From a phage: 38,456 bases of DNA. Both the position numbers and the translations under genes were made by a program. Location: assembly GCA_030819375.1 (NCBI GenBank), contig GCA_030819375.1_4699.1, one strand, 5' to 3'. The notes below the pieces were generated by a model. That model searched no databases, had not been told where the DNA came from, and saw nothing but the letters and a program-made list of their open reading frames with translations. Each line of letters opens with the position of its first letter. Positions within the stretch are counted from its first letter, which is position 1. Positions 3,233-18,672 of the stretch are shown in pieces.

Positions 3233-5860
3233 ATGAAAGATTTATACGAAACCCAACTCATGTTAGAGGAAGAGATGTTCTCTGGTGGTATCCGTCGCTT
3301 TGAAGCGGACCAACAACGCCAGATTGCATCCGGTAATGAATCAGACACGGCATGGAATCGCCGCCTATTGTCTGAGTTAATCGCACCTATGGCTGAAGGT
3401 ATTCAGGCATACAAGGAAGAGTATGAAGGTAAAAGAGGCCGTGCACCGCGTGCATTAGCTTTCATTAACTGCGTAGAAAACGAAGTGGCAGCATATATCA
3501 CGATGAAAATCGTTATGGATATGCTGAACACGGATGTAACCTTGCAGGCTATAGCCATGAATGTAGCTGACCGCATTGAGGACCAAGTACGTTTTAGCAA
3601 GCTGGAAGGTCACGCCGCCAAATACTTTGAGAAAGTTAAGAAGTCACTTAAGGCAAGTAAGACTAAATCATATCGCCATGCGCACAACGTAGCGGTCGTG
3701 GCTGAGAAGTCAGTAGCTGACCGTGACGCTGATTTCTCTCGCTGGGAGGCGTGGCCTAAAGATACCTTGCTACAAATCGGGATGACCTTGCTAGAAATAC
3801 TGGAAAATAGTGTATTCTTCAATGGTCAGCCTGTCTTTCTTCGCACCTTGCGCACTAATGGTGGCAAGCATGGCGTTTACTACTTACAGACTAGCGAACA
3901 CGTGGGTGAATGGATAACTGCATTTAAAGAGCACGTAGCTCAGCTGAGCCCAGCCTATGCGCCTTGCGTGATTCCTCCTCGTCCGTGGGTGTCACCTTTT
4001 AATGGCGGTTTTCACACTGAGAAGGTGGCAAGCCGTATTCGTCTGGTTAAAGGTAACCGCGAGCACGTCCGCAAGCTGACCAAAAAGCAAATGCCAGCGG
4101 TTTACAAGGCTGTTAACGCCTTACAAGCTACTAAGTGGCAGGTTAACAAGGAAGTATTGCAGGTAGTAGAAGATGTTATTCGTCTAGACCTCGGTTATGG
4201 TGTACCTTCCTTTAAGCCGCTCATTGACCGCGAGAACAAACCAGCTAACCCTGTTCCTCTTGAGTTCCAGCACCTGCGAGGCCGTGAACTTAAAGAGATG
4301 CTAACGCCGGAACAATGGCAAGCCTTCATCCACTGGAAAGGTGAATGTACCAAGCTGTATGCCGCTGAAACTAAGCGCGGCAGCAAGTCGGCGGCAACCT
4401 TTCGCATGGTCGGGCAGGCCCGTAAATACAGCCAGTTTGACGCAATATACTTCGTGTATGCACTGGACAGCCGCTCACGCGTTTATGCGCAATCTAGCAC
4501 ACTCTCACCGCAATCAAATGACTTAGGCAAGGCTTTACTACGCTTTACCGAAGGGCAAACCATAAACAGCACTGAGGCGCTTAAGTGGTTTTTGGTGAAC
4601 GGGGCAAATAACTGGGGCTGGGATAAGAAAACTTTTGACGTGCGTACCGCTAACGTGCTGGATGGCGAATTTCAAGACATGTGCCGCGACATTGCAGCCG
4701 ACCCGCTGACCTTCACTCAATGGGTAAATGCTGATTCCCCTTATGGCTTCCTTGCATGGTGCTTTGAATATGCGCGTTATCTGGATGCACTGGACGAAGG
4801 AACGCAAGACCAATTCATGACGCACCTACCCGTCCATCAAGATGGGAGTTGCTCTGGTATCCAGCACTATAGCGCGATGTTACGCGATGAAGTAGGTGCG
4901 AAAGCAGTAAACCTTAAGCCTTCTGACTCCCCTCAAGATATTTATGGCGCGGTTGCGCAGGTTGTTATCCAGAAGAATTACGCCTACATGAATGCAGACG
5001 ATGCAGTGACTTTCACATCCGGAAGCGTCACACTTGCAGGTGCAGAACTGCGTAGCATGGCTAGTGTGTGGGATATGATAGGAATCACTCGCGGCCTGAC
5101 CAAAAAGCCCGTAATGACCCTACCTTATGGCAGCGCACGTCTAACCTGCCGTGAGTCAGTGATTGATTATATCGTTGATTTAGAAGAAAAAGAGGCCCAA
5201 CGAGCTATTGCGGAAGGGCGTACCGCCAATCCTGTACATCCTTTTGATAATGGCCGTAAGGACAGCCTGACACCTGGCGCAGCTTATAACTATATGACAG
5301 CTTTAATCTGGCCTTCTATTTCGGAAGTGGTTAAAGCTCCTATAGTGGCAATGAAAATGATTCGTCAGCTTGCCCGTTTCGCAGCTAAAAGGAATGTAGG
5401 CTTAGAGTATACCTTGCCTACTGGCTTCATCTTGCAACAAAAGATAATGGCGACAGATATGCTCCGCGTATCTACTTGCTTGATGGGAGAAATCAAGATG
5501 AGTCTACAGATTGAAACGGACGTAGTGGATGAAACGGCTATGATGGGCGCTGCTGCTCCTAACTTTGTGCATGGTCATGATGCCAGCCACCTTATCTTAA
5601 CAGTCTGCGACCTTGTTGATAAAGGGATTACATCTATCGCAGTCATTCATGATTCTTTCGGTACTCACGCAGGTCGTACAGCCGATCTACGTGATAGTCT
5701 AAGGGCAGAAATGGTGAAGATGTATCAAGGCCGTAATGCATTGCAAAGCCTGCTAGATGAGCACGAAGAACGCTGGTTAGTTGATACTGGAATCCAAGTG
5801 CCAGAGCAAGGAGAGTTTGACCTTAACGAAATCTTAGTATCTGACTATTGCTTCGCATAA
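3233..5860 (+). CDS. Single-subunit DNA-dependent RNA polymerase (T7 gene 1 family), 875 aa
   Basis: Length and C-terminal ...[13 protein letters not shown] resemble the T7 RNAP terminus (recalled ...NLRDILESDFAFA); conserved palm motifs; matching promoters throughout the window. Confidence 0.97.
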
Positions 5861-5868
5861 TATTAATA

Positions 5869-5899
5869 GGCCATTCCTTCGGGAGTGGCCTTTTCTTTT
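5869..5899 (+). terminator. Intrinsic terminator after the RNAP gene
   Basis: 9-bp GC-rich stem ggccattcc/ggagtggcc with UUCG tetraloop, followed by TTTTCTTTT. Confidence 0.8.
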
Positions 5900-5935
5900 A
5901 CCTACTACCGGTAAAAAATTTCATTAACATAAAGT

Positions 5936-5951
5936 GTCTCACATGTGAGAC
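5936..5951. repeat. GTCTCACATGTGAGAC palindromic hairpin element (copy 1)
   Basis: Perfect 16-bp palindrome immediately upstream of the promoter at 5954. Confidence 0.8.
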
Positions 5952-5953
5952 TT

Positions 5954-5976
5954 ATTTACCGGACACTATAGGATAG
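5954..5976 (+). promoter_or_regulatory. Phage-RNAP promoter (ATTTACCGGACACTATAGG)
   Basis: Matches the recurring consensus; predicted +1 G at 5971. Confidence 0.75.
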
Positions 5977-6117
5977 CCGTCGGAGACGGGAAAGAAAGGG
6001 AAGATAAAGGATATAAAAGGAAGTAATAGGTATTAAAGGTTATATAGGTTATCTAGGAATACCTATTACCTTCTTCCTTCCTCTTATTACCACTTAGAGG
6101 AAGGGCAGATCTAGGTT

Positions 6118-6133
6118 GTCTCACATGTGAGAC
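6118..6133. repeat. GTCTCACATGTGAGAC palindromic hairpin element (copy 2)
   Basis: Perfect 16-bp palindrome immediately upstream of the promoter-like sequence at 6139. Confidence 0.8.
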
Positions 6134-6138
6134 TTCGT

Positions 6139-6161
6139 ATTTACCGGACAGTATAGATAAG
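6139..6161 (+). promoter_or_regulatory. Variant phage promoter-like sequence (ATTTACCGGACAGTATAGATA)
   Basis: Consensus with C-to-G change in the CACTATA core; arranged in tandem with 5954 like the paired promoters at the T7 primary origin. Confidence 0.45.
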
Positions 6162-6186
6162 ACTAACTTACTTTGGAGATTTAACC

Positions 6187-6264
6187 ATGCGTAACTTTGA
6201 GAAGATGACCCGTAAAGCTAACCGTTTGACATGGAAGAAGGGCAGAAGAAAGGCAAGAAGTTGA
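6187..6264 (+). CDS. Small basic peptide (25 aa, MRNFEKMTRKANRLTWKKGRRKARS), T7 gene 1.1-like position
   Basis: GGAGA RBS 7 nt upstream of ATG 6187; below ORF-track cutoff; lies between the tandem promoters and the primase gene. Confidence 0.3.
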   Translation: MRNFEKMTRKANRLTWKKGRRKARS

Positions 6265-6284
6265 ATGCGTGGGAGTTCTAAGTT

Positions 6285-8273
6285 ATGGCTATTATTCAGA
6301 ATGTACCGTGTCCTGCTTGCCAAAAGAACGGACATGATATTACTGGCAATCATTTAATGATCTTTGACGACGGGGCAGGATACTGTAATCGTGGTCACTT
6401 CCATGATAACGGTAAACCTTATTACCACAAGCCGGAAGGTGGCATCGAGATAACCGAGTTACCTATTACTGGCAATATCAAATATACACCTTCTCAATTC
6501 AAAGAAATGGAGAAGGAAGGGAAGATAAGCGACCCTAAATTACGTGCCATCGCACTAGGTGGTATGCGTATGAAAGACCGTTGGGAGGTCATGAATGAGC
6601 AAGAAAGGGCAGACCAAGAAGCAGAGTGGAAACTTGATGTTGAATGGTTCCTCACGCTTAAGCGTAAGAACCTTGTTTCCCGACACATTCGCGGTGACAT
6701 TTGCGCATTGTATGATGTACGTGTCGGACACGATGAAGAGGGTAGAGTCACGCGGCATTACTATCCACGCTTCGAGCAAGGTGAGCTAGTAGGAGCTAAG
6801 TGTCGCACATTACCTAAAGACTTTAAGTTTGGTCATTTAGGTAAACTCTTTGGTATGCAAGATCTTTTCGGGATGAATACTTTGTCTCACGTGTTAGACA
6901 GGGGAAGACGAAAGGATTGCTTGCTTATTGTGGGTGGGGAACTGGATGCGCTAGCAGCGCAGCAGATGCTCCTTGATTCTGCCAAGGGTACTAAGTGGGA
7001 AGGTCAACCTTACCATGTATGGTCTGTTAACAAAGGGGAGTCTTGCCTTGAAGAGATTGTACAGAACCGTGAACACATCGCCCAATTCAAGAAGATTATT
7101 TGGGGCTTCGATGGGGATGAGGTAGGGCAGAAGCAGAATCAGCAAGCGGCTCGCCTGTTTCCTGGTAAATCCTATATCCTTGAATACCCCTCTGGTTGCA
7201 AAGATGCTAACAAGGCATTGATGGCTGGCAAGGCTAAAGAATTTGTAGATGCATGGTTTAATGCCAAGTCATCTGATGAAGTCTTTGGTAGCCAGATTAA
7301 ATCTATCGCATCTCAAAGGGATAAGCTCAAGGCTGCACGTCCAGAGCAAGGGTTATCATGGCCTTGGCCTAAGCTGAACAAGGTAACGCTAGGTATTCGT
7401 AAGAACCAGCTTATCATTGTAGGTGCAGGCTCTGGTGTAGGTAAGACTGAGTTCCTTCGCGAAGTGGTTAAGCACCTCATTGAAGAACACGGTGAATCTG
7501 TAGGCATCATTTCTACAGAAGACCCAATGGTCAAGGTGTCCCGTGCTTTTATCGGCAAGTGGATTGATAAGCGTATTGAGTTACCGCCAACCAACGATCC
7601 GAAAGAAGACGGATACCGTGAGGTGTTCGACTACACCGAGGAAGAAGCTAACGCTGCCATTGATTATGTGGCTGATACAGGGAAGCTGTTTGTAGCTGAC
7701 CTAGAGGGTGACTATTCTATGGAGAAGGTAGAGCAAACTTGCCTAGAGTTTGAGGCTATGGGCATTTCTAATATCATCATTGATAACTTAACGGGGATTA
7801 AATTAGATGAGCGTGCTTTTGGTGGGAAGGTTGGTGCACTTGATGAATGCGTCAAGCGGATTGGTACTATCAAAGACAGACATGCAGTTACTATATTCCT
7901 TGTATCACACCTTACACGTCCTCCGGCAAACCGTACCCAACACGAAGAAGGTGGCGAGGTTATCCTTTCTGACTTCCGAGGCTCAGGGGCTATCGGATTC
8001 TGGGCATCTTACGCCTTGGGGATTGAGCGTAACACAAGAGCTGAAACGCTTGATGAAAGAACTACCACGTACATCTCATGTGTCAAAGACCGCGACCAAG
8101 GTATCTACACCGGAACCAAGATCATGCTTAAGGGTGACATTCAAACCGGACGTTTGAGAGAACCTCAAGCCCGTACTAGGTCATTTGACACAGGCGAAGC
8201 AAGGCAACAAGAAGTGCCTGATTTACCGGACACTATAGAAGAGACTAACTTCGATGAAGAAAGTGAGTTTTGA
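6285..8273 (+). CDS. DNA primase/helicase (T7 gp4-like), 662 aa
   Basis: N-terminal Cys4 zinc ribbon (CPACQ...CNRGH), Walker A GAGSGVGKT, acidic C-terminus ending ...FDEESEF. Confidence 0.95.
   Translation: MAIIQNVPCPACQKNGHDITGNHLMIFDDGAGYCNRGHFHDNGKPYYHKPEGGIEITELPITGNIKYTPSQFKEMEKEGKISDPKLRAIALGGMRMKDRWEVMNEQERADQEAEWKLDVEWFLTLKRKNLVSRHIRGDICALYDVRVGHDEEGRVTRHYYPRFEQGELVGAKCRTLPKDFKFGHLGKLFGMQDLFGMNTLSHVLDRGRRKDCLLIVGGELDALAAQQMLLDSAKGTKWEGQPYHVWSVNKGESCLEEIVQNREHIAQFKKIIWGFDGDEVGQKQNQQAARLFPGKSYILEYPSGCKDANKALMAGKAKEFVDAWFNAKSSDEVFGSQIKSIASQRDKLKAARPEQGLSWPWPKLNKVTLGIRKNQLIIVGAGSGVGKTEFLREVVKHLIEEHGESVGIISTEDPMVKVSRAFIGKWIDKRIELPPTNDPKEDGYREVFDYTEEEANAAIDYVADTGKLFVADLEGDYSMEKVEQTCLEFEAMGISNIIIDNLTGIKLDERAFGGKVGALDECVKRIGTIKDRHAVTIFLVSHLTRPPANRTQHEEGGEVILSDFRGSGAIGFWASYALGIERNTRAETLDERTTTYISCVKDRDQGIYTGTKIMLKGDIQTGRLREPQARTRSFDTGEARQQEVPDLPDTIEETNFDEESEF
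8221..8243 (+). promoter_or_regulatory. Phage promoter embedded in the 3' end of the primase/helicase gene
   Basis: ATTTACCGGACACTATAGAAGAG; +1 G at 8238; encodes DLPDTIEE in frame. Confidence 0.65.
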
Positions 8274-8288
8274 TTAGTGTATTTATCA

Positions 8289-8320
8289 GGGCTTGTCTCA
8301 CATGTGAGACAGGCTCTTAT
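8289..8320 (+). terminator. Hairpin with GTCTCACATGTGAGAC core (copy 3), terminator or processing site
   Basis: 18-bp perfect palindrome 8294-8311 inside a ~12-bp stem with a G-U pair, followed by a weak T-run. Confidence 0.5.
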
Positions 8321-8349
8321 TAAGTACATTAAATAACTGGATATTGATT

Positions 8350-9033
8350 ATGTATAAATTAGTATTGAATGTAGGTGATTATGTTCGTAACATCAATGTA
8401 ACCTCACGTAGATATCGTTGCCGTGGTACTGTGACTAATGTAAGTGAAAACAGCTACTATGTAGAGTACAGTAATGGTATTAGACAGGCTTATCAAAAGG
8501 AATCAGCACATAACTACCTTGAGAAGATTGGAGAGGTAAGCAATCAATGTAAGTGCGTACACGATGAGATTTGCGATAAGTGTGCCCGCCAGCTGCATAA
8601 AATGCTATTATACCCTCTTCGCTATGGTGCTGGTGTTCAAACATTAGCAGAGGCATATGGCAAAAGTAAGACCACACTCAAGAAAGAGCGCCGCAATGTA
8701 ATCACTGGTAAGACTCAAAGTGAAATGATTAAACTATGTGGCACTGCATTAGGTGTTACGCAGTTTAATACTCGTTCATTGGGTAAATCCACAGGGCAAG
8801 CTATGGTGAAAGTTGGTGAAGCTATGATGCACCCAAATGTGCCTGTGCGAATCTTGGATGTTGACCATGCAATCACAGAGCATGGCACACCACGGCGTGT
8901 AGCTAATAATCATTTCGCCGACACTATAGAAGGTATTATTCGTAAGCAAGGGTTGCAGGGTCTTCACATCTTAAATGGTGAAGAATTACTGTACCTACCT
9001 ATCGTTACTGAAGAAACATACGTGAATATCTAA
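8350..9033 (+). CDS. Hypothetical protein (~227 aa)
   Basis: ORF track 8344..9033 begins at TTG; first ATG is 8350; no recognisable motif. Confidence 0.55.
   Translation: MYKLVLNVGDYVRNINVTSRRYRCRGTVTNVSENSYYVEYSNGIRQAYQKESAHNYLEKIGEVSNQCKCVHDEICDKCARQLHKMLLYPLRYGAGVQTLAEAYGKSKTTLKKERRNVITGKTQSEMIKLCGTALGVTQFNTRSLGKSTGQAMVKVGEAMMHPNVPVRILDVDHAITEHGTPRRVANNHFADTIEGIIRKQGLQGLHILNGEELLYLPIVTEETYVNI
8912..8932 (+). promoter_or_regulatory. Promoter-like sequence inside a coding region (ATTTCGCCGACACTATAGAAGG)
   Basis: Core GACACTATAGAAG conserved, upstream half divergent; +1 G at 8929. Confidence 0.35.
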
Positions 9034-9043
9034 GGAGTTAATC

Positions 9044-9262
9044 ATGACTAAGGTATTAATTTATATGCGTGGACCTCATAAATGCTATGCAGTTGTAGCA
9101 CCAGATGGTGTTAAGCCCTATAGTACTTCAAAAGGATTGGCATTAATAGGTGCTAGTAGTAGTGCAAGTTTCCAAATGGAACTTTCTGGTCATTTGACTG
9201 AATGGCAATTCCGTGAGGCTTTTAAAGTCATTGGCAGCTTCATGGTGAAATATGCAGAATAA
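9044..9262 (+). CDS. Hypothetical protein (72 aa)
   Basis: AAGGAG RBS; ORF track. Confidence 0.6.
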   Translation: MTKVLIYMRGPHKCYAVVAPDGVKPYSTSKGLALIGASSSASFQMELSGHLTEWQFREAFKVIGSFMVKYAE

Positions 9263-9428
9263 ACATAGTCTTAAAATGTTCGATGGTCATGAAGACCTGC
9301 AAGCCAAGATTACTAACCAAGCCTTCCTGTTCGCACAGGTAACTATGGCTGAGGCCAAGAAGAATAGTCTCACTCGTGAACAGGTTATCAAGGAAAGTGA
9401 AGTGAAACGTAAGATTCGCAGTCGATAA
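9252..9428 (+). CDS. Small hypothetical protein (58 aa), below ORF-track cutoff
   Basis: ATG 9252 overlaps the end of the upstream gene; ORF ends 7 nt before the terminator hairpin; no strong RBS. Confidence 0.3.
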   Translation: MQNKHSLKMFDGHEDLQAKITNQAFLFAQVTMAEAKKNSLTREQVIKESEVKRKIRSR

Positions 9429-9434
9429 GTCAAG

Positions 9435-9466
9435 GGTTGTCTCACGTGTGAGACAGCCTTTTATCA
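9435..9466 (+). terminator. Intrinsic terminator-like hairpin with GTCTCACGTGTGAGAC core (copy 4)
   Basis: Stem ggttgtctca/tgagacagcc (10 bp, one G-U), loop CGTG, followed by TTTTATCAT. Confidence 0.65.
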
Positions 9467-9488
9467 TATTGATTGGAGGATTAACTTT

Positions 9489-9596
9489 ATGAATAACTAC
9501 GACTCTGATTGGGATTTCCAAGATTCAATGCAACCTAAACCAGAAAGGAGGGAGGATGAGTTCGAAACAGATCAAATGTACGAGGATTTTTACTAA
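9489..9596 (+). CDS. Small acidic hypothetical peptide (35 aa) overlapping the HNH start
   Basis: GGAGG RBS 9 nt upstream of ATG 9489; MNNYDSDWDFQDSMQPKPERREDEFETDQMYEDFY. Confidence 0.3.
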   Translation: MNNYDSDWDFQDSMQPKPERREDEFETDQMYEDFY

Positions 9597-10035
9597 CTAC
9601 ATCCTCTACTCTGATGGTCGAGTTCTTAACGAGAAAACAGGGCAATACCTAAGAGGTTACTTAGATAAGGATGGGTATCATATTATGAATATTAAAGGGA
9701 AACACCTTAAAGTTCATAGATTAGTTGCTACTCATTTCATACCTAACCCTAATAATTTACCTGAAGTTAACCATAAAGATCATGACCGTCTAAATAATAA
9801 TGATTGGAATCTAGAGTGGTGTACTCATCAAGATAACAACAAGCATAGTTTGCATTTAGTGATAGCTTCTTGTGCTAAACGCTATGACTTTATATCACCA
9901 CAGGGCGTCCATGTAGAAGTCTATAACCTACGTGAATTTTGTAGGAATAATAACCTACAACAATCTCATATGGTTAAGGTAGCTAAAGGTAAAGTAAGAC
10001 ATCATAAAGGTTGGACTAATTATGCTAGATGTTGA
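9556..10035 (+). CDS. HNH homing endonuclease (159 aa)
   Basis: KVHRLVATHFIPNP...EVNHKDHDRLNNNDWNLEWCTHQDN motif; GGAGGGAGG RBS; sits directly upstream of and overlapping the DNA polymerase start. Confidence 0.85.
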   Translation: MSSKQIKCTRIFTNYILYSDGRVLNEKTGQYLRGYLDKDGYHIMNIKGKHLKVHRLVATHFIPNPNNLPEVNHKDHDRLNNNDWNLEWCTHQDNNKHSLHLVIASCAKRYDFISPQGVHVEVYNLREFCRNNNLQQSHMVKVAKGKVRHHKGWTNYARC

Positions 10036-16503: not shown

Positions 16504-16898
16504 AATCATCGGAGGTAGCAGCTTATAAGAGGGAATTGCTAGAGAAGCAAGGATGGAAGTGCCCCCTATGTGGCGGCAGTCTCAAGGCTGTTACTCCTAT
16601 AAACCGTGTACTTGACCATGACCATGAGACAGGATTCTGCCGTGCTGTTGTATGCCGAGGCTGCAATGGTGCAGAAGGAAAGATTAAGGGTGTTATCTCT
16701 GGTTATGGTAAGGCTGGTAACAACCGTTACTTCCAGCTTCAATGGTTAGAGCGACTATATGAATACTGGAAGTTACATAGTACGCCTCAGACAGATAAGT
16801 TATATCACAAACACCAAACGGAGGCAGAGAAGCGCGAGGCTAAGAACCGTAAGGCACGCCTTGCTTATGCAAGAAAGAAGGAGGTTAAAGTTGGGTAA
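16488..16898 (+). CDS. Endonuclease VII-type Holliday junction resolvase (136 aa)
   Basis: CPLCGG...LDHDHETGFCRAVVCRGCNGAEG matches the T4 endo VII zinc-binding/H-N-H signature. Confidence 0.9.
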   Translation: MVSKLKSSEVAAYKRELLEKQGWKCPLCGGSLKAVTPINRVLDHDHETGFCRAVVCRGCNGAEGKIKGVISGYGKAGNNRYFQLQWLERLYEYWKLHSTPQTDKLYHKHQTEAEKREAKNRKARLAYARKKEVKVG

Positions 16899-17898
16899 GC
16901 TTCGCAGCTTGTACAAAGACTCCGAGGTACTTGATGCAATCGAGCAAGCTACCGACGAGAAAGGTAATGTTAATTACAATGAGATGGCACGTGTATTATC
17001 GTGTCACCCTGTGGGTAAGAAGATTACCCGCCAGTTGGCTCGATACTGGCATGGTCAATTCAAGAAGACCAAGAAGAATGGTGATTATTACCAGACCCTT
17101 CTGCAAGAAGATAAGCGTATCAAAGAAGAGCGTAAGCTCAGGACTCCTGACCGCTACGAGGATTTGGCTATTGTGCCATTGCCTGACTCGCCTCATCGAA
17201 GTGTACTGGTGATCCCTGATACTCATGCACCTTATGAGCACCCAGATACCCTAGAGTTCCTTGCAGCCGTGGCAGCACGTTACCGTCCAGACACAGTGGT
17301 ACACCTAGGAGATGAGGCAGACAAACATGCCTTGTCATTCCACGATTCGGACCCAAATCTGGATAGTGCTGGCATGGAGTTAGAGAAGGCTCGTATCTTC
17401 ATGCACAAATTGCACAAGATGTTCCCTGTGATGCGCCTGTGTCACTCCAACCACGGCTCTATGCACTTCCGTAAGGCAAGCGCCAAGGGCATCCCTGTGC
17501 AATACCTGCGCACCTACCGTGAAGTTTTCTTCCCGCAGGGAGGTGGCGACCAGTGGGATTGGCAGCATACGCACGTCCTTGAGTTGCCGAATGGTGAACA
17601 AGTGGCATTCAAGCATCAACCTGCTGGCTCTGTCCTAGCAGATGCAGCGCATGAGCGTATGAACCTAGTGTGTGGTCACTTGCACGGTAAGATGTCTGTG
17701 GAGTACGCACGTAATACACATGAACAGTATTGGGCTGTGCAAGGTGGCTGCTTAATTGATGAGTCATCCCGTGCATTTGCCTATGGTCGTGAGTCTAAAT
17801 ACAAGCCAGCATTAGGTTGTGTGGTCATTCTGGAGGGTGTGCCTCACATTGTCCCGATGCAAACCAATAGCGACAACCGTTGGATTGGCAAGATTTAG
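16891..17898 (+). CDS. Calcineurin-like metallophosphoesterase (start uncertain: TTG 16891 preferred over ATG 16867 or track start 16759)
   Basis: Motifs VIPDTHAPY, LGDEADKH, CGHLHG; AGGAGG 6 nt upstream of TTG 16891, which overlaps the endo VII stop. Confidence 0.75.
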   Translation: MGKLRSLYKDSEVLDAIEQATDEKGNVNYNEMARVLSCHPVGKKITRQLARYWHGQFKKTKKNGDYYQTLLQEDKRIKEERKLRTPDRYEDLAIVPLPDSPHRSVLVIPDTHAPYEHPDTLEFLAAVAARYRPDTVVHLGDEADKHALSFHDSDPNLDSAGMELEKARIFMHKLHKMFPVMRLCHSNHGSMHFRKASAKGIPVQYLRTYREVFFPQGGGDQWDWQHTHVLELPNGEQVAFKHQPAGSVLADAAHERMNLVCGHLHGKMSVEYARNTHEQYWAVQGGCLIDESSRAFAYGRESKYKPALGCVVILEGVPHIVPMQTNSDNRWIGKI

Positions 17899-17914
17899 TT
17901 GACACTATAGAACA
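17893..17914 (+). promoter_or_regulatory. Phage-RNAP promoter (ATTTAGTTGACACTATAGAACA)
   Basis: Consensus copy overlapping the upstream stop; +1 G at 17910. Confidence 0.7.
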
Positions 17915-17998
17915 AAGGGCTAGGTAAGACTTTATCGGCTGGCGTATCCAAATGATATTGCACTAGCCCTTGATTGCATAGTGAATGGAGGATTCAAT

Positions 17999-18151
17999 AT
18001 GTCACACTATGAATGTAAGAAGTGTCATAAGCGTTATGATTACTGTACTTGTGGTCAAGAGAAAACATCTTTTAAAGTTGGAGACAAGGTATTTCGTAAT
18101 GAAAAAAGATTCGATTCCTTGGAATCAATACTGCAAAGAAGCTGGTATTGA
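17999..18151 (+). CDS. Small zinc-ribbon-like protein (50 aa; CxxC...CxC)
   Basis: GGAGG 8 nt upstream of ATG 17999; MSHYECKKCHKRYDYCTCGQ...; the track ORF 17985 has no RBS. Confidence 0.4.
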   Translation: MSHYECKKCHKRYDYCTCGQEKTSFKVGDKVFRNEKRFDSLESILQRSWY

Positions 18152-18503
18152 CCCTGATAGCCCTGTAACCATAGATGATATTGATGGCATTAACTTGTGC
18201 TTTCGTGAGGTGAGGGGTACAGGTTGGGATTCCAAAAAATTCAAACTTGCATCTGATAAGTTAGACAACAATATGGTAACTCAGCCTAAGCACTACGAGT
18301 TCTTTGATGGTGTAGAGGCAATCACTATCATTGCCCGCAGTATGACTGAAAAGCAATTCGCTGGGTACTGCATGGGTAATGCCCTTAAGTATCGCCTACG
18401 TGCAGGTAAGAAGTTCAATACTGAAGAAGACTTGAAGAAGGCAGACTATTATAAAGAGTTATTCCAGAAGCATCGTCACGAATGTATTGATGAGGATATT
18501 TGA
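18099..18503 (+). CDS. Conserved phage hypothetical protein (track ORF 17985..18503; ATG 18099 is a plausible start)
   Basis: ORF track frame; motif QPKHYEFFDGVEAITIIARSMTEKQFAGYCMGNALKYRLRAGKK reads like a conserved phage domain of unknown function. Confidence 0.55.
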   Translation: MKKDSIPWNQYCKEAGIDPDSPVTIDDIDGINLCFREVRGTGWDSKKFKLASDKLDNNMVTQPKHYEFFDGVEAITIIARSMTEKQFAGYCMGNALKYRLRAGKKFNTEEDLKKADYYKELFQKHRHECIDEDI

Positions 18504-18504
18504 T

Positions 18505-18672
18505 ATGGAAGTTAAATTGTACAGAGGTTACTTTGGCAACTTGTACAAAGTAAGTCGCAAGGGTTCTATATTAACATCCAATGATGAAGGTGCAACTTTA
18601 AGTGCCTATGGTTCTGACTTAGCGTACTTTAAAGAGGCAATAGTCAAAGGTGTGATGAAGGAGGTGAAATGA
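18505..18672 (+). CDS. Hypothetical protein (55 aa)
   Basis: ATG 18505 immediately follows the upstream stop, GAGGA RBS; track start 18487 is TTG. Confidence 0.5.
   Translation: MEVKLYRGYFGNLYKVSRKGSILTSNDEGATLSAYGSDLAYFKEAIVKGVMKEVK

Follow-up and report, generated by a model that had tools for sequence, protein, structure and literature searches.

The region 17999-18503 of the window, i.e. of the whole stretch of 38,456 nucleotides that was analysed, in all likelihood (probability about 0.9) carries one known gene, encoding a nucleotide kinase similar to gp1.7 of phage T7, with its reading frame split by an extra A at codon 35-36. The gene itself is already known: it is the Vectrevirus homologue of T7 gene 1.7 and corresponds to gene 23 of Escherichia phage K1-5. 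Since the +1 insertion splits the open reading frame, the locus is a frameshifted allele or a pseudogene of the gp1.7-like family rather than an intact member of it. The frameshifted gene is missed both by the PGAP annotation, where a 134-aa "DUF3310 domain-containing protein" starts at ATG 18099, and by the reading of the region as two nested genes, and both have to be corrected.

Sequence comparison places the window among the K1-5/K1E/SP6-like Vectrevirus phages. Megablast searches with the kinase region and with the first 25 kb matched phages of the genus Vectrevirus (Autographiviridae, Molineuxvirinae), e.g. K1-5, K1E, LL11, and ULINTec4, with identity of 92-96% genome-wide and at most 97% locally. 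The protein record HDT1154117.1 is titled "TPA: DUF3310 domain-containing protein [Escherichia coli]", and the window sequence represents 38.5 kb of a lytic Vectrevirus genome. Thus the sample, although deposited as E. coli, contained phage DNA.

The kinase gene occupies the same place as in K1-5, between the genes of a metallophosphoesterase and of DNA ligase. The mechanically derived ORF of the metallophosphoesterase (16759-17898, 379 codons) is overextended; the relatives are annotated with 335 codons from the equivalent of 16891, a start that overlaps the end of the endonuclease VII gene. Between the kinase and ligase genes there is a 55-codon ORF (18505-18672; phrog_15259, unknown function), which the window shares with ULINTec4-type relatives, and which is absent from K1-5, AAPEc6, and LL11. 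Given this patchy distribution, it is an indel-variable accessory gene.

The elements of the locus are as follows.

17893..17912, plus strand: SP6/K1-5-type phage RNA polymerase promoter ATTTAGTTGACACTATAGAA, an exact copy of the query, directly upstream of the kinase gene
17915..17971, plus strand: hairpin in the 5' leader, predicted to be stable (MFE -29.7 kcal/mol, z = -2.5 against dinucleotide shuffles)
17985..18503, plus strand: 172-codon "track ORF", the first 38 codons of which are the true N-terminus read out of frame
17988..17992, plus strand: Shine-Dalgarno box GGAGG, 6 nt before ATG 17999, identical in K1-5 and ULINTec4
17999..18106, plus strand: native codons 1-36 of the kinase, with the Cys4 knuckle and the beginning of the middle domain (SFKVGDKVFRNEK)
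17999..18151, plus strand: 50-codon ORF, in which the 36 native codons run on into 14 that are out of frame (RFDSLESILQRSWY) and end at a stop
18099..18503, plus strand: 134-codon ORF, exactly matching the PGAP call HDT1154117.1, with a weak Shine-Dalgarno box AAGG 9 nt upstream
18102..18107, plus strand: A6 tract with the 1-nt insertion, the frameshift site; A5 in the examined relatives
18108..18503, plus strand: remainder of the kinase gene (codons 37-167 and stop), shifted to the +1 frame (the frame 3 HSP of tblastn)
18234..18239, plus strand: second A6 tract (AAA-AAA, K79-K80), intact in the window
approximately 18276-18455, plus strand: DUF3310 domain (Pfam)

The promoter belongs to a set of nine matches with at most three mismatches in the window, all of them on the plus strand, with none expected from shuffled sequences. 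The predicted hairpin downstream of it might serve in processing or stabilisation, in the manner of RNase III sites in T7-type phages.

An extra A splits the kinase frame

The "nucleotide kinase" of K1-5 is encoded by a single 504-nt CDS (167 aa) that starts at the equivalent of 17999, the annotated start of gene 23 (EPKV1_gp26), and stops at the equivalent of 18503. ULINTec4 is likewise annotated with one CDS starting from the equivalent of 17999, and K1E gp23 likewise begins with the cysteine motif. The promoter, leader, ribosome-binding site, start, and stop of the window gene are all shared with K1-5 gene 23 (YP_654124.1 / AAR90065.1) and with ULINTec4 (UCR91783.1). What sets the window apart from these two phages is the extra A at 18102-18107 that splits the ORF. 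In the alignment this tract is A6 in the window and A5 in K1-5 and ULINTec4. Over 241 nt around the start, the only other difference from these phages is one substitution (C for T at 17977), and the alignment of the kinase gene with its relatives contains no compensating indel.

The change of frame is directly seen in tblastn. Residues 1-36 of the K1-5 protein are 100% identical to 17999-18106 translated in frame 2, and the remainder of the protein matches frame 3 up to 18500, being nearly identical once the extra A is removed. With the +1 insertion at 18102-18107, no uninterrupted ORF runs from the N-terminal module into the DUF3310 domain in the window, as it does in the orthologues. Of the 35 phage records matched by a 91-nt query around the tract, none is identical to it, and all have one base fewer over the aligned stretch. 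An exact pattern search of IMG/VR gave no matches for A6 and three matches for A5. The 70-member protein cluster of the kinase consists almost entirely of 167-aa proteins, in which the knuckle is fused in frame to DUF3310.

These comparisons also bear on the use of start codons. The initial annotation had rejected ATG 17985 as lacking a ribosome-binding site, and rightly so: this codon, preceded by ttgcatagtga, has no upstream Shine-Dalgarno motif. Moreover, in K1-5 the same frame runs into a stop after 60 codons, and thus the 172-codon ORF exists because of the A insertion. The other proposed start, ATG 17999 with its GGAGG box, is real and used, as it coincides with the annotated start in K1-5. 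The 50-codon ORF beginning there was described as encoding a CxxC...CxC motif, and both the sequence and the list of ORFs bear this out. Its product begins MSHYECKKCHKRYDYCTC (also given as MSHYECKKCHKRYDYCTCGQ) and has cysteines at residues 6, 9, 16, and 18, i.e. CxxC-x6-CxC, with the cysteine codons at 18014, 18023, 18044, and 18050.

The suggestion that the conserved protein starts at ATG 18099 does not hold. In the window this ATG is in frame with the DUF3310 part. However, it is out of frame in every A5 relative, and it becomes usable only via the insertion. The 134-codon ORF would yield, by internal initiation, a product without the knuckle and without the first strand of the middle domain, the missing part including the first 12 middle-domain residues, which are retained even in knuckle-less natural variants.

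The kinase family and its N-terminal knuckle

Three parts make up the 167-aa protein: the Cys4 knuckle at its N-terminus, a middle region that is variable, and the DUF3310 domain at its C-terminus. The latter (PF11753) is recognized by Pfam at 88-88.7 bits, compared to the gathering cutoff of 24, over profile positions 1-59/60. The C-terminal 73 amino acids have 64% identity to T7 gp1.7 (BLASTP, E 2e-30). After repair of the frame, the 167-aa protein matches the PHROG family phrog_1689 "nucleotide kinase" along residues 5-167 (E 3.8e-44), whereas the 50-aa ORF has a weak match to the same family, confined to residues 4-36, and Pfam assigns the latter to no family.

A homology search with the N-terminal 93 amino acids produced only three proteins, two of them knuckle-less variants and one a frameshift product with A4 in the tract. 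A sequence search of PDB yielded only insignificant matches to SH3 domains (E 0.2-0.3), and thus no solved relative by sequence. For the repaired protein, single-sequence prediction with AlphaFold2 gave a poor model (pLDDT 42.5).

The T7 protein is a characterised dTMP/dGMP kinase (PMC11897194, PMC7693777). The proteins of the window and other Vectrevirus phages are putative kinases by homology, as the activity has been demonstrated solely for T7 gp1.7. Like the window protein, T7 gp1.7 (NP_041967.1) is a small accessory protein of the early/middle region, its gene is situated near the DNA ligase gene, and it has a cysteine-rich N-terminal extension. However, the N-terminal and middle regions of T7 gp1.7 have no sequence homology to the window kinase, and the T7 gene is intact. 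T7 gene 1.7 contains an internal AAGGAG-N7-ATG at codon 42, which makes an N-terminally shortened form plausible in T7 too. Indeed, Tran et al. in 2010 are said to have described two forms of T7 gp1.7, the shorter one without the first cysteine cluster.

The four cysteines are kept in K1E gp23, which agrees with the window protein at 12 of the first 20 residues. As the cysteines are retained while other residues differ, the motif is not a chance pattern. Its conservation identifies it as a real domain of the kinase, under selection and putatively zinc-knuckle-like.

The knuckle is not universal in the family. LL11, SP6-like phages, and the metagenomic variants P0016 and P0017 have knuckle-less proteins that start at "...FKVGDKV" or "...GEYVVRR". 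Proteins of the T7/T3 group have another knuckle, CIAC-x9-HTC, and further types (CPKC..., CxxC...HEC) were observed as well; all of them are in frame with DUF3310. The knuckle was found as a separate ORF in none of the 60 IMG/VR loci with gp1.7 homologues, apart from AAPEc6 with its own frameshift. In the same set of loci (L020-L079), the 70-aa C-terminal domain is preceded by short Cys/His knuckles of at least four types, by unrelated domains of up to 280 aa, or by nothing. In one of these loci (L030), the T7-type CIAC...HTC knuckle is joined directly to a DUF3310 domain with 93% identity to the K1-5 protein. Thus in this family of gp1.7-like enzymes, cysteine-knuckle N-termini form a recurrent, swappable module.

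Mutation or sequencing error

Given the split, the insertion is likely a genuine mutation, leading to loss of function or to a hypomorphic allele of a dispensable accessory gene. A clearly less probable explanation is a sequencing or consensus error: the tract would truly be A5 in the phage, the 167-aa kinase would be intact, and the additional A would be a homopolymer read artefact. In favour of this, the change concerns the length, by 1 nt, of a homopolymer that is among the longest in the genome, A6 occurs in no other public sequence, and other assemblies, some of them clearly noisy, have indels at the same two tracts.

An independent assembly was found in Logan. An exact look-up of the 134-aa ORF product in the contig index gave nothing, and the sample DRR389817 was located via the ligase, a 155-aa ORF, and the primase. 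Its contig 91 (45,064 nt), produced by a different assembler, carries A6. It is 100% identical to the window in 8036-28503 (20,468 nt) and in 4785-9773 (4,989 nt), with no mismatches or gaps. Agreement of two different assemblers over 25 kb excludes an artefact of assembly. On the other hand, this is the only Logan sample with the A6 allele, and it is apparently the same sample that gave rise to the contig of the window. Thus a systematic homopolymer error in the reads is still compatible with both assemblies.

The distribution of frameshifts in the genome argues against such an error. When all proteins of K1-5 and LL11 were compared to the window by tblastn, only two genes switched frame: the kinase gene and the homologue of K1-5 gene 8. 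The genes of RNA polymerase, primase/helicase, DNA polymerase, portal, capsid, tail, internal virion proteins, and terminase are in frame. The window contains 21 other runs of at least five bases and about 190 runs of at least four, and the essential genes are nonetheless all in frame. Random homopolymer errors would rarely break only two small accessory genes, whereas real mutations filtered by selection fit this pattern. Further, the second broken gene is not only small and accessory, but has a 33-nt deletion, which is not a signature of sequencing error.

This second gene (6187-6278) is the homologue of K1-5 gene 8 and LL11 gp11, which belongs to phrog_2490 (unknown function) and has 42 codons in the relatives. 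In the window, T4 is changed to T3, and with a further deletion of 33 nt the ORF is reduced to 25 codons; the DRR389817 contig from Logan agrees with the window here.

If the insertion is a genuine mutation, the window probably shows a dispensable phage kinase that has been naturally knocked out or turned into a hypomorph. This fits the situation in T7, which in the laboratory does not need its gene 1.7 (PMC9712115). Such a phage would be a ready-made natural mutant for analysis of the contribution of the kinase, e.g. to nucleotide supply or to triggering of Avs5-type defence. The biological content of the observation is modest.

Variation of the A tracts and expression of the split gene

Changes in the A tracts of this gene were observed in other sequences. 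In phage AAPEc6, the same gene is represented by two overlapping ORFs, gp24 and gp25 (YP_009786434.1 and YP_009786435.1; 87 aa and 92 aa), due to a 1-nt change in an A tract. However, in AAPEc6 the shift occurs at the second tract (A6 to A5, codon 79-80), unlike the window. The second tract (the site 18234-18239) is A5 also in several Logan contigs from ERR runs, and the first one (the site 18102-18107) is A4 in the Logan contig of ERR4562402. Three Logan contigs (L011, L012, and L016, from ERR4561599, ERR4564196, and ERR4562402, respectively) have lost single nucleotides from several other short homopolymers, in the ligase gene and its neighbours. Thus the frameshifted genes in the ERR456* contigs are probably sequencing artefacts, and the tract variants there may be noise. 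A biological hotspot of recurrent tract indels was considered and downgraded, as the ERR456* contigs are noisy in the neighbouring genes.

T7 gp1.7 was reported to activate the defence protein Avs5 (PMC11897194). One could imagine the two A tracts, which are nearly all that is left of long homopolymers in a genome otherwise purged of them, to be contingency-like mutational switches that toggle the gp1.7-like kinase off and on in Vectrevirus populations and allow the phage to evade host sensors such as Avs5, the window being a natural "off" variant. We consider this very doubtful.

The gene is transcribed from the phage promoter 17893-17912 and translated from GGAGG-N6-ATG 17999. For its split form, the following mode of expression may be suggested. 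Ribosomes starting at 17999 would make a 50-aa peptide of 36 native and 14 nonsense residues. The kinase domain could be made only weakly, either by internal initiation at ATG 18099 with its weak Shine-Dalgarno box, or by slippage events on the A tract, which would be rare. With the kinase lost or weakened by a genuine mutation, the phage would be dependent on the dTMP/dGMP kinases of the host.

Slippage might also be regulated. In that case the locus would be an example of programmed recoding, with the full-length kinase produced by +1 ribosomal slippage or by RNA polymerase slippage on A6. Slippage on runs of A is a known phenomenon, and at the site GAA-AAA-AGA the lysine tRNA can re-pair perfectly in the +1 frame (AAA to AAA). 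However, for transcriptional slippage to be efficient, A6 is short, a stimulatory element was not found, and the two-frame arrangement with A6 is kept in no relative, the close relatives having A5 and being in frame. Hence regulated recoding is highly improbable. Traces of the full-length protein could arise by +1 slippage at GAA-AAA-AGA or by slippage of the polymerase, but re-pairing of AAA to AAA ahead of AGA is no more than a formal possibility. As a "hungry" codon driving the +1 frameshift, this AGA is a weak candidate, since it is not especially rare in the phage, with a frequency of 8 per 1000 codons.

Finally, the initial annotation had proposed an independent small zinc-ribbon gene at 17999-18151, nested out of frame in the gene starting at 18099 and encoding, e.g., an inhibitor of a host enzyme; despite the strong ribosome-binding site, the conserved Cys4 motif, and the probable role of the 50-aa peptide as the chief product of translation in this genome, this can be practically dismissed, as no other sequence has these ORF boundaries, the close relatives carry the motif in frame at the N-terminus of the kinase, and the last 14 codons are out-of-frame kinase sequence that matches nothing. 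A collection of 15 billion proteins contains neither the exact 50-aa product nor the exact 56-aa one. Conservation of both frames, suggested as a check, was not observed: the two-frame arrangement was found in none of the 35 phage records, in no member of the 70-member cluster, and in none of the 60 IMG/VR loci. Nothing was found in support of a stand-alone inhibitor.

Homopolymers are strongly under-represented in the window. It contains 23 runs of at least five bases, compared to 128 in shuffled sequences, and three runs of at least six bases (5913-5918, 18102-18107, and 18234-18239), compared to 34. Two of these three longest runs are situated in the kinase gene, one of them being the mutant tract. 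Pairs of lysine codons follow the same trend: none of the 47 Lys-Lys pairs in 39 other coding segments is encoded by AAA-AAA, with about seven expected, and K79-K80 of the kinase is the sole case.
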